This document shows, in pieces, positions 27,501 through 32,746 of a DNA stretch of 64,000 nucleotides (positions are counted from its first letter, which is position 1; every line of letters starts with the position of its first letter). The stretch covers positions 1-64,000 of the forward strand of contig JAAILG010000047.1 of NCBI GenBank assembly GCA_012026655.1, read 5' to 3'. Source of the DNA: Hydrolagus affinis (lineage: Eukaryota). The notes under the pieces were generated by a model, which was not told the DNA's origin, searched no databases, and saw only the letters and a list, made by a program, of their open reading frames with translations. The translations under genes were made by a program, and so were the position numbers.

Positions 27501-30500
27501 TTCGATGCTGCCAAATCCCATTTGAAATGTGCTTCCTGAAAATATTAATCACGCTGGCTTGACAAAATTTCTGAAAGCGTCCCACAGGTGGGTTCTGGAA
27601 AGTGAGCGCTTCTCTTCAGAATCTTTTGTGTAAAATTGGCGAAGTACTGTACCTGATTTAATTTCTTTCAAATTGATGATCCAGCTCTCATCCCAAAGCA
27701 TCTTTTGCTTCTGGTACTGCAACCACTAAAAACGTATACAAATAATGTAGAAGTAAACTGAAACTGGACAAAGAAAAGATTAGGAAAACAGTGGGAGGCA
27801 GGGTGGGTGGTATGTCTGTTGGAGTTACCATAGATCTCTGCCATTCATACCTGAACCTCCCATCGCGTTGTGGTATATTGAGAAATCACCATCCAGCAGA
27901 TGGGATTTCTTTCACATTTCTACTGTTGGTTGAGCTCATGGATATGATCTCAGGTATATTCTTAAAATGCTTAGGTACTATTTTAATAATAAAACATTTC
28001 CAATGCAGCTCATTTGAAAAAGTACTTTAGGATAATTTTGCACAATAAGATGCTAATCAAAGTGTTATTTATTACGTACCACCACAGTAAATATAAACCC
28101 ACTGCAGAACAGGGCAATTGGAAGGCCTATTGAAACTTTGATTGTTGTGGGCATGGGGCATGCCCCACAGTCAGCTGGACACGTATCACATCGTTCATCA
28201 CCATCACAAACTCCGTCATCGCAAACTAATAATACAGGTTAAGAAGGAAACATGATTCACCTTGTGCAAGTAATCATACATATATTCTAAAGACATGCTA
28301 ACAGTGCAAAGACATTTATTTTAAATACTGTACTTATTCTTCAATATTCAACGCATGCAAAATATGCATGTACTTGTTCTACTTGTTTATTATTTCAGAA
28401 ATAATAAAAACTAAGATGTTTACAAAAAGCCCAAAGTGACGAGCAATACCTTGTGCACTCAATACTGTTGTCTTTGCTTCCAAAGCAGCATGCATACGTC
28501 CTAGTTTAATGTGTGCAATTAATGAAGTCATCCCATCGAGGATTAAGACAACCTGGAAATTATTACACAAAGGAGTGATATTTATTGGTGTGCAAATGAA
28601 AAAAAAGCAAGCAATACTGAGATTAGATAGATCTAAATCAGTCAATTGTAAAATCATCTGTAATATTATTTGGCTCAAGAATGCATCCTATGAATAGCTA
28701 GCAACTTCTTAATCTGTGACTGTGCTCAACAAGATAATACATCCAATTTTAGTGTCAGATTAGAGCTCTTATAAAATTATAAAGGAAACTAAAATAGCAT
28801 GGAGTATTCATGGAGATCTTCAGAAACGGTAAGATTATGATTACCTCAGAAAGCTTAAATTGTCTTAATTTTGTTTAATATATACTCATTTATATATATT
28901 ATTAAACAGTAAAAACAGTGTAGCCTAGTTACCAGTGAATCAATCAAGCTTATCTTCTAAGGCTCAGGAAATTGTATTGGAATTGTATATGTAAGCTTGT
29001 TGAATATAATACTGTACAATGTATTCATATCCCAGCACTCAACTAGATAACCTTGTGGCATAGCAGTAAGACAAAAGAATAGGAAGACTTTAATCTAGTC
29101 CTGATCCCAGTAAACAACAACAATAACAAAATTACACTTATAGAGTGCCTTTCACGTCAGGAGGCGCTGAACAGTCAGGGGTTGGGACCTGAGCATGGGG
29201 GAGAGGGATAGTAGTGGGGAGGGGCACAGTAGAGGGGAGGGGAGGGAGAGAGGTGGGAGAGTGGCTGAAGTAACAATTGAAAAGAAGGGTCTTGAGATCA
29301 GCCTTGAAGGAGGCAAGGGAGAAAGCGAGGTGAAGGGACTGTGGGATGGACTTCCAGAGTGTGGGGGCAGAGAGACTGAAAGTGATGGTAGGGCAGGTCG
29401 GGCAGGAGACATGGAGCAGATTGGAGCCCACTGAATGGAGGGGGTGGGGCAGGTTGGTAGGGAGTCGGGGAATCAGGGAATCACGTTAAATAATAGGACA
29501 CAGAATAATCATGGACACTCATGAAATGCGGTTGCACAACCTGTTTGATGGAACGTACTCCCAACATACACATGTAATTTTGTTGTTGTTTACAAAATAA
29601 TTAATTTAAAGAACAACATTCTAATTCTTGGTCTATGTGCCATATGTATACACTAAATACAAATTTAAAGACATCACTGTGATAAAATACTGTATTTACT
29701 CAAATAGAAGGTGATTTTTTCATTAAAAGGCACCTCCAAAATCAAGGTGTGCCTTAGAATCAATTTCACCTTACAATTGAAGCAAAGTTCCTTCTATTTT
29801 CCACAAACTCCAGTTAAAGCTTTATAATCAGGCACACCTTAGATTTGAATAAATACAATAATGTTAGTTTTATCTTTTTGGTAACAAATGTAGATTCAAG
29901 TAAGTTAAATACATTTGTAACCATTGTACATCAACAGTAAATGATCAGACTGCCCATTAACAATACCTTAGTCGTCCAGTTTTGTTGGGACATCTTGCCA
30001 GCCTGTGGCGCTGTGTGAGTAACTATTTTTCCATCATCTGGAATCCAGGGACCACATATACCTCCTTCTTTCTGAAACAAACAATGTTTAAAAATCCTTG
30101 GAACGCTGCCTTAAATATTGTCCATTGATGGACTTTAAAGATCCCATCACACGATTTGTAAAACAACGTGGAGTTTTTTTTTCTATAATCCAAGCCAATA
30201 ATTCTCCAGGTAAAATCCTTCCGACTTGCAATCTGCTGTTTCGAAAACATTTGTGAAATTTGAAATTGAGACCTTGGAATAGCTAAAAAATGTAAATTAA
30301 ACTTTCATATAAGACAAATGATAAAGTATGAGTAGCATCATTTAATTCAATATTTTGTGGACCATTCAACACATAACTAAATTTCAAAAGTACTGTACAC
30401 ACCATAAATGCCATGGGGCAGGAATGAACGTTGGCATGGTAAATGCAGCAGTTATTTTCAGATGCATCTTTCCAGTTTGCTGGGCACTCCTTTTCATCAC

Positions 30501-32746
30501 AGAACCATTTTGCTTCACTTGCATTGCTACATATCAAAAATAAGATTGGATGTTTAACTGGAAGAGCAGTTATCAGATTCATAGTCAACCTTTTTGCATT
30601 TCTAGACATGTGCATTGAAACAACTATGATGTGCCAAAATTTGGCCCAATTGACTGTTAGGTAAGAAATGCTTTCGCAGTGTGACAGCGCCATTTCCTTT
30701 CAGGAAACAAACCTTTTCGTATCTATTGAGGATACTTGGCGATAATAGCAAAGAGACAATACCGTAATTTCAGATCAATTCCCACCTGAACTTCAGAATT
30801 CCCTGTGTGACTGCCATCTCGTAAAATCCATGGGAAACAATAACACTATAGGTAATATTGAACTCCTCACCACTCCGCACTTTCTCTGGGGGTCTGTCCA
30901 CCCAGCTCATTTCCAGACCTTAAAGAAAGGAAGCCACAATCGTAGCAACAATCAAAAACGATCAGAATTTGTAAATAAATGGAGAAGCTAGATGCAAAAA
31001 CATAATTTTACAACTAAATAAATCCTAAGAAATTCTTAACCAGCCATCTGATGATTCCAACAATTTGGTTCCGGTTGTCTTTGCATTTTCCCTTGACACC
31101 AAATTATCAATCAAGACAATTTTTTACGGCAGTAATTTTGCACAAAAGACAGGGGGGAAGGGAATAAATCTGGAGGCAAGTACGTTGAGAAAAATGCGTT
31201 GAGAAGTCAGTTTGTCTTATTATTTTTTTTACACACACCACACACACCAGTTACTGAAATGCAATCCTGAATATATGATGCAACTGAATATAATCAGGTT
31301 TGACACACCTCACTTGATTGATGTTTTTAGTGAGTTCATATTCAATCTTACCCCCACAGTCGATCATGTTGTGTTCATCTGGTTCCTTGATGGGCCAACA
31401 ATCGTAATCACTGTTATCCAAATCATGCCAACACTCTGTAACCTTCATAGAAAGATTAATCCCAAAGTCAGTGAATTAAAGTTACTGATCCTACAAGTAT
31501 GATAGGAAAGGCAACATCATCGCTGTAACTTTGTTTACATGTGAAAGAGACAGGTATTTCTACATAACTCCTAACCAGAGGTAATTACAGTTTTAGCAAA
31601 GTAAAAATAATCCTTGCATTTGTTATAGCGCTTTTAATAATAATTCTTGCATTTGATATACAGTAGCGCTTTTCAAATCTTCTAGACATCTCAAAGTGCT
31701 TCACAGAATATACTGTAAAGTGAAATTACTGTATATAAGTGAGTGAAACACGGGAGCCAATTACACATAGCAGTTTCCCACAAACAGTCATGGATTGAAA
31801 TGACCAATTTTTTTTTGAGGAATTGTTATTCGGCTTGTAGAGTAAGAACACTTGCCCAAGGTTTTGTCCTGCCTGGAATTGAACCCAGGTCTCTTTATTC
31901 TAAGTCAAATGCTCTAACCACTGAGCTACAGGACTCCATTCCAACAAGTAAAAGCATTTATATTGGGACCACGACTGCTTGTGGGACACTGCTGTGTGCA
32001 ATTGGCTGCCGCGTTTCATCCACAAATATACAATCAATTCTGTGAAGTGTTTGAGGCGTCTAGAAGACGTGAAAAATGCTACATCAAATGCAAGTATTAT
32101 TATTTTCATACCTGGGATTGAAACAAAATGATCATGATTTGAACATTATTATTATTATTTAAAAAAAATCTAAATCCACAATACACCCAATTCCAAAATA
32201 ACAAAACAGGAGAGGGGTGGAGGGGTGGGGGAGATATATTTAACGAATATATCGTTATGCAGCTGGTCGTTTCATTCAAATGAATGACAATAGTTTTTAG
32301 TCTATAAAAGAAAAATGAACTTGAAAATATTTATTGACAGCATCAAGTTCCCGGCTTGGAATTTATTGATTTTCAACTTGAATAGGTGCCAGAAAGAAGA
32401 TTTCTAATCTTTAAATCTTGGGAAATTTGAAAAGAGAAATATGAAAAGAAATGTAAAGGGCTTTAAAACAAGACTCCTGCATTTCTTATTCTAGTAAATG
32501 TGTAACTATTACCTTAAAGAAGTTAAAATATAGTCTTCAAGCCATTTACAATAAGGAATTAAATTAAACATAGAATGCAGACATCATTGCACATACTGAT
32601 CTCAGGATGGCGCAGTACTTTTGCAATATGTTCTCTGGTAATAAAGTATTGGTATTTATAAGCATATAAACAACATTAAAATCCATACTTACAAGAAAGA
32701 GAAAGGATAAGGTTAGTAAAACAGCGCTAAACTTGTTGCTTTCCAT
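15561..32746 (-). CDS. Orphan receptor-type (membrane) guanylyl cyclase with a short Cys-rich ectodomain; 23 coding exons, 847 aa
   Basis: Exons (minus strand): 32746-32693, 31442-31352, 30918-30786, 30526-30403, 30071-29967, 28552-28450, 28225-28080, 27725-27653, 27535-27394, 26838-26752, 26494-26351, 25724-25603, 25500-25359, 25137-25089, 24976-24869, 24669-24550, 23429-23336, 23230-23143, 22351-22212, 20500-20348, 20224-20126, 17388-17297, 15695-15561. They total 2544 nt, all phases are compatible and there is no internal stop. Signal peptide [45 protein letters not shown]; kinase-homology motifs [32 protein letters not shown]; hinge [16 protein letters not shown]; cyclase motifs [40 protein letters not shown]. 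Confidence 0.95.
16995..17180 (+). mobile_element. CR1 LINE 3' fragment
   Basis: tattttcacatagcgagttgttcagatctggaatgcattgcctga...acttttaagaaagaagtaga corresponds to the CR1 ORF2 C-terminus (F..RVV.IWNALP...FKKE.D); a related copy is at ~45305-45500. Confidence 0.7.
17700..18048 (+). mobile_element. L2-type LINE 3' fragment
   Basis: ORF2-end peptide [28 protein letters not shown] followed by a ggagctatataaa..(gtt)n tail. Confidence 0.75.
19735..20060 (-). mobile_element. tRNA-derived SINE, near full length
   Basis: Same body as the other copies, with a degenerate head (gggaatagaacccgggtctctcg) at ~20030-20060. Confidence 0.7.
26940..27262 (-). mobile_element. L2-type LINE 3' fragment
   Basis: (caa)n tail, tatagtgccctcc, and the purine-rich antisense of the L2 ORF2 end ([16 protein letters not shown]). 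Confidence 0.7.
29113..29470 (-). mobile_element. L2-type LINE 3' fragment
   Basis: Minus-strand ORF reads [31 protein letters not shown]; the tail is tatagagtgcctttcacgtcaggag with (caa)n. Confidence 0.75.
29690..29858. mobile_element. Tc2/pogo (Kanga/MER104-like) MITE
   Basis: Imperfect TIRs CTGTATTTACTCAAATAGAAGGTG ... CACCTTAGATTTGAATAAATACAA, flanked by TA at both ends. Confidence 0.6.
31635..31937 (-). mobile_element. Full-length tRNA-headed SINE
   Basis: Head on the minus strand GGAGTCCTGTAGCTCAGTGGTTAGAGCA (A box) ... GGTTCAATTCC (B box), then body and (TTA)n tail. Confidence 0.8.
31969..32104 (+). mobile_element. 5'-truncated SINE, inverted relative to the neighbouring copy
   Basis: ccacgactgcttgtgggacactgctgtgtgcaattggctgccgcg...caaatgcaagtattattatt. 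Confidence 0.75.

Follow-up and report, generated by a model that had tools for sequence, protein, structure and literature searches.

The 64,000-nucleotide window of the Hydrolagus affinis genome considered here (contig JAAILG010000047.1; positions are numbered over the whole window) carries on its minus strand a gene encoding an intact single-pass receptor guanylyl cyclase, the extracellular part of which is an unnamed, deeply conserved and mobile domain set on a gene of a known receptor kind. The gene comprises 23 exons, running from 32746 to 15561 (−), which join into a frame of 847 amino acids (aa) with no internal stop; a pseudogene is ruled out by this open frame. Of its introns, 21 are of the GT-AG type and one is GC-AG, the GC donor belonging to intron 18 (22352-23142). 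The gene model predicts, in receptor-cyclase order, a signal peptide, one transmembrane helix, a kinase-homology domain, a coiled coil and a class III cyclase domain. Exons 8-16 (24550..27725, −), placed from the gene model and tblastn, encode the juxtamembrane linker and the kinase-homology domain, and exons 17-23 (15561..23429, −), placed from the gene model, the dimerisation coil and the guanylyl cyclase domain, with the stop codon at 15563-15561. Pfam scanning detected PF07714, PF07701 and PF00211 on three orthologues, PF07714 (with PF00069) marking the kinase-homology portion and the other two the coil and cyclase portion. Residues D643, E683, D687, C755, N762 and R766 of the cyclase domain are all present in the joined protein; the catalytic Asp pair with the GTP-selecting Glu and Cys is the set expected of an active GTP-specific cyclase. 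Expression of the gene has thin support. In X3, one of the two raw RNA runs used (about 30% of it was covered), 15 reads could be placed, among which 3 reached 99% identity or more. Apart from a repeat at about 30130-30165, a depth of about 1 was seen only over the bins of exons 3, 4 and 5, and there was no splice joint.

The ectodomain is spread over exons 1 to 7, all on the minus strand. Exon 1 (32693..32746, −) provides the start codon along with the greater part of the signal peptide, cleavage being predicted after C22 from the small residues at −1 and −3. Since small residues precede a conserved WHDL in the homologues, the mature chain likely begins with Trp-His. Exon 2 (31352..31442, −) would thus encode the mature N-terminal segment, with W23-H24, C33 and C47, as placed from exon joining and H24 conservation. 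Exon joining together with the predicted model assigns the first sandwich strands, the first helix of an insert and the sequon NIT69 to exon 3 (30786..30918, −). The same evidence, with the alignment, assigns to exon 4 (30403..30526, −) a helical disulfide insert (C102, C107, C119 and C120) followed by an HxNxHSC strand with H123 (30438-30436), N125, H127 (30426-30424) and C129. From exon joining and alignment, exon 5 (29967..30071, −) brings the C140-GPW loop, H153 (30017-30015) and the sequon NWT165, and exon 6 (28450..28552, −) the final two strands, H183 (28513-28511) and a variable H190 (28492-28490). Exon 7 (28080..28225, −) carries a juxtamembrane motif of six Cys, recognized from their conservation, and the transmembrane helix, predicted from hydrophobicity. 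In the gene model, the mature ectodomain amounts to 211-214 residues. The first-pass annotation of this DNA had described a novel module in exons 2-6, and the peptides that it quoted are all found there on the minus strand, with GT-AG borders throughout. Counting in the joined exons likewise returned the figures it had given, with 8 Cys in residues 23-203 (33, 47, 102, 107, 119, 120, 129 and 140), 6 further ones from exon 7 (205-226), hence 14 in the mature ectodomain, and three N-glycosylation sequons (NIT69, NAS94 and NWT165).

No named family could be attached to this ectodomain. Pfam gave no match in 14 of 14 ectodomains, ANF_receptor included, NCBIfam no significant match and the sequences of the PDB no sequence match, in agreement with the first-pass annotation, which had recognized none. 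The receptor GC-A is matched at E 1e-153 by the intracellular part only, from profile position 235 on, after the membrane. GC-A and GC-B do share with the present protein the single transmembrane segment, the kinase-homology domain, the coiled coil and the cyclase, but their own ectodomain is an ANF_receptor domain of about 450 aa with a periplasmic-binding-protein fold, in contrast with the roughly 210-aa beta-sandwich and Cys stalk predicted here. Identity with a receptor for atrial natriuretic peptide (ANP) was therefore rejected, given the missing ANF_receptor match, the GC-A similarity starting after the transmembrane segment and the beta-sandwich of the model.

Conservation was examined by searching with the ectodomain of a ray orthologue, which is 81% identical to the window protein. 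The search returned 320 proteins at E<=0.001, which places the similarity beyond chance, and the vertebrate counts below refer to the best 120 of these 320. All 120 come from non-mammalian jawed vertebrates. Their database names (ANP-receptor-like, guanylate cyclase, hypothetical, uncharacterized) are misleading, since Pfam assigns neither ANF_receptor nor any other family to the ectodomain and the GC-A match is restricted to the part after the membrane. H123, N125, H127, H153 and H183 are each kept in 120/120 proteins and H24 in 119/120; 13 of the 14 ectodomain Cys, including all six from exon 7, are also found in 120/120, C33 being present in 119/120. Position 190, by contrast, holds His in 73 proteins and Gln in 47, and H42 and H78, found in 7/120 and 0/120, are incidental; on their poor conservation, H190, H42 and H78 were rejected as core ligands. 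The His cluster of the first-pass annotation is thereby reduced to an invariant set of four (H123, H127, H153 and H183), its RMH histidine, H190, falling away. Identity across jawed vertebrates reaches 68-80% in the ectodomain and exceeds that of the kinase-homology domain in 9/9 vertebrate comparisons (70% versus 61% for a sparrow paralogue). The Leu-Asp pair at residues 174-175, in exon 6, is shared with 1 of the 120 homologues, that of Callorhinchus.

The same domain extends well beyond vertebrates. A profile built from 14 vertebrate ectodomains reached E<=0.001 with 277 representatives. From 150 of these, 31 distant rows were picked for long coverage and aligned with 42 vertebrate rows. 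In a ranking of polar columns that leaves out Cys, Gly, Trp, Pro, small and aliphatic residues, the top positions among the distant rows are H127 and N125 (29/31 each), H183 (27/30), and H153, T152 and H123 (27/31 each). All four His are kept in 26 of the 31, so that the conservation seen in vertebrates holds for most of these distant rows as well, while position 190 is His in 14/31. Among the five exceptions, three rows lose three or four His, one loses two and ends without the last strand, and one loses a single His. The last is the ichthyosporean Chromosphaera, which lacks H153; the remaining four, of which two come from gastropods and one from a cestode, have two to four His missing. Judging from this alignment, the four His tend to go together when they are lost. 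P0177, P0209, P0259 and P0241 (two gastropods, a tapeworm and one more) are divergent paralogues of this kind, from which two to four His are gone and in which the Cys and the PW motif are kept.

Named carriers include Asterias, Gigantopelta, Littorina, Mercenaria, Mactra, Nucella, Anoplocephala, Chromosphaera and the dinoflagellates Polarella and Polykrikos. Many of the 36 longer matches that were scanned for domains are guanylyl cyclases; six carry Ephrin_rec_like repeats, two of these being TRP-like multi-pass proteins by a match to the Pfam TRP family, one carries Sushi repeats and two are tandem arrays. In the dinoflagellate-type proteins P0246, P0268, P0249, P0253, P0254 and P0231, the Cys repeats of the Ephrin_rec_like type follow the His domain. 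P0260, of 1306 aa, opens with an apparent signal peptide, behind which come three His domains, a linker rich in Cys, a 7tm_3 domain and a fused G-alpha; it represents a natural fusion of a class C G-protein-coupled receptor (GPCR) with a G protein in a eukaryote. In these carriers the His domain stands at the N-terminus; where that end of the protein is complete, an apparent signal peptide precedes it. The first-pass annotation had suggested looking for the domain on other receptor types, in invertebrates and in protists, and it does occur in all of these (the GPCR fusion, echinoderms and molluscs, the ichthyosporean and dinoflagellates). In three proteins with tandem copies, which stand outside the folded alignment, HxNxHxC served to find the copies, and the TH and AH histidines further downstream are likewise kept in 10 of 10. 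The copies lack the helical four-Cys insert, and the domain core would therefore consist of the sandwich, two putative disulfides (33-47 and 129-140) and the His set.

Structure prediction was carried out on the ectodomains of a carp paralogue (P0123) and of the ray orthologue, standing in for the window's own spliced protein. For P0123, with 73 sequences, five consistent models were obtained, with a predicted local distance difference score (pLDDT) of 87.9 (range 85-88) and a predicted template-modelling score of 0.81; they display strands packed as a sandwich, with an insert of two helices. The ray ectodomain (14 sequences), used as a cross-check only, gave a similar strand pattern, with a pLDDT of 76.4 and a good result in one of five models. 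An immunoglobulin-like (Ig-like) beta-sandwich is thus predicted, as the first-pass annotation had proposed, and the VIA-align matches, though generic, support it (best Z 8.4, root-mean-square deviation (rmsd) 2.6, 95 residues aligned; Z>=5 for 390 chains out of 48,161), as expected of a sandwich of seven or eight strands that superposes on Ig, FnIII or macroglobulin domains. Foldseek gave no match at E<=0.001 for either model, and no specific match to a known peptide-binding fold emerged from the fold searches; of the outcomes that the first-pass annotation had named as refuting its proposal, neither such a match nor a lack of His conservation was seen. The ESM Atlas gave no usable match for P0004. 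Its top feature look-alike, for P0137, is Reeler (PF02014), a secreted disulfide-bonded beta-sandwich; it was set aside as no more than a lead, the score of 0.79 (163/256 features) being at the level of shuffled controls and no Pfam match being found. Along one strand of the model, H123, N125 and H127 are interleaved with hydrophobic residues of the core, and so is H183 on another. In this register the four side chains do not fall in with the core and are expected to face outward. From Ig topology, the strands bearing them may be neighbours in one sheet, with H153 reaching the same spot.

A quick tree of 35 intracellular parts, supported by the Shimodaira–Hasegawa-like approximate likelihood ratio test only, divides the 28 rows from vertebrates equally between two clades (14 each, supports of 99 and 98). 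The window gene groups with Callorhinchus P0001, in a clade of sharks, ray-finned fish, coelacanth and a frog; the second clade also includes amniotes. One further copy in the same genome (contig C1189, 8100-24300) is closest to the second clade and shares 82-98% identity with Callorhinchus P0070 in most of the matched exons. Mammalian names are missing from the best 120 of 320 and the best 120 of 410 homologues, which hints that the gene may have been lost in mammals.

The medaka receptor OlGC8 is a membrane cyclase of the orphan class. It is reported not to respond to known ligands, its ectodomain is of half length, at about 214 residues, and we know of no description of a His motif or of a wider spread of its domain. 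That length compares with the 211-214 residues of the mature ectodomain here, and the window gene probably belongs to the OlGC8 family. Oryzias rows are found neither in the best 120 of 320, nor in the best 120 of 410, nor in the 10 clusters listed. The OlGC8 accession BAB21378 appears in a supplement of PMC1435932, GC8 does not occur in the passages covered of its main text, and those covered of PMC6170504 and PMC6787079 contain nothing on this family. More generally, no description of the domain or of its His motif was found in the literature covered, most subscription journals and preprint supplements lying outside this scope.

Around the cyclase gene, the window contains two exons of a GPCR resembling lysophosphatidic acid receptors (37659-38063 and 49547-50335, −), likely LPAR3 from synteny, an ion-channel pore exon with weak Pfam matches (63446-63844), which we take to be mucolipin-like, and coiled-coil exons (89-1451), which resemble SSX2IP. 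If these names are right, the cyclase lies within an SSX2IP-LPAR3-MCOLN block, and no such cyclase gene is known to us in the human counterpart.

What the ectodomain does may be approached through its position. It occupies the usual place of a ligand-binding flytrap domain, on cyclases as well as on a class C GPCR, which argues for a sensing role. Venus-flytrap domains of class C GPCRs and receptor cyclases stand at the same chain position, N-terminal to a Cys-rich stalk as in P0260, but their fold is unrelated to the predicted sandwich, and the present domain is less than half their size. In the explanation that we favour, with an even chance of being right, the four conserved His make up a metal site through which a non-peptide signal is sensed. 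H123, H127, H153 and H183, with N125, would come together around an ion of Zn, Cu or Fe, and occupancy of this site, or a small ligand at an open position, would shift the receptor dimer. The shift would pass through the six-Cys stalk and the transmembrane helix, and the inhibition by the kinase-homology domain would be relieved, so that cyclic GMP (cGMP) rises. Relief of this inhibition is an established way of raising cGMP in other receptor cyclases. It is put forward more tentatively that an ancient eukaryotic extracellular metal-site domain was shuffled onto cyclases, the class C GPCR–G-alpha fusion and TRP-like proteins, and that fish, amphibians, reptiles and birds thereby possess a cyclase whose switch is a metal ion, or else a small molecule or gas bound to a metal, and not a peptide.

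Most vertebrate receptor cyclases for which a ligand is known bind peptides, and the ectodomain could likewise serve a peptide or protein hormone, the His lining the ligand pocket or holding a structural metal. The 68-80% identity across jawed vertebrates and the invariant predicted N-terminus are in line with such a vertebrate ligand. A single shared peptide is nevertheless unlikely, since the His set recurs in dinoflagellates, in the ichthyosporean (three of four) and in tandem arrays, and the ectodomain does not match that of natriuretic receptors; we regard this explanation as rather unlikely overall. In a redox or gas sensor, or a small metalloenzyme, a four-His Fe or Cu centre similar to that of superoxide reductase would react with superoxide, O2 or NO and gate the cyclase. 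Superoxide reductase (neelaredoxin, PF01880) is an Ig-like sandwich that holds Fe through four His. It could be aligned over 108/124 residues (Z 8.0, rmsd 3.1, 13% identity), and the copper proteins PmoD, CrdA and AA10 lytic polysaccharide monooxygenases (LPMO) are among the Foldseek rows. These rows are, however, tied with arrestin, macroglobulin and SoxY, none at E<=0.001. Superoxide reductase itself is a cytosolic prokaryotic enzyme with a Cys ligand, compared here by fold alone, and no PF01880 match was obtained (families at E<=10, 14 members). C120, of the local CxxH, is moreover missing from the tandem copies that keep H123, and such a centre appears improbable. The histidine brace of AA10 LPMOs needs His as the first mature residue and was rejected, the predicted vertebrate start being Trp-His; the histidine of this N-terminal Trp-His does not occur in the dinoflagellate and Chromosphaera rows.

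A sensor free of metal would use His protonation to report extracellular pH or CO2, or would bind an anion or a sugar directly through the cluster. His does titrate near neutrality, some receptor cyclases answer bicarbonate or CO2, and carbohydrate-binding Ig folds figure among the fold rows (8wac, Z 7.3). Retention of four His and an Asn for more than one billion years would be more typical of metal ligation, and K185 (23/30) is the only conserved basic or acidic partner; the chances of this explanation are as slim as those of a redox centre, if not slimmer. Several points nevertheless weigh against the metal-site explanation itself. Among vertebrates the whole surface is very highly conserved, the WHDLDN at the N-terminus with it, which would also suit a ligand of peptide or protein nature. 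The fold matches of the models are generic, at background level, and indicate no function. Strand register gives the face of the His and not the distance between their side chains, and the H153 segment has little assigned secondary structure and adjoins a loop at pLDDT 62-66. The distant alignment displays no deeply conserved Asp, Glu or free Cys ligand, and 10 of its 31 distant rows carry an organism name, the rest being classed as non-vertebrate by divergence. A profile search favours rows that match conserved columns, and two of the four His of the tandem copies are present by construction, since these copies were found through the HxNxH motif.

The four invariant His provide a concrete, testable site on an orphan receptor, and the divergent paralogues that have lost two to four of them offer natural controls for the function of this site. 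The ANP-receptor-like naming hides a separate class of receptor cyclases, with two paralogues in non-mammalian jawed vertebrates, the carriers of which include birds of the poultry line and farmed fish. If the metal site proves true, the domain would be a sensing module new to cGMP and G-protein signalling, and one older than animals.

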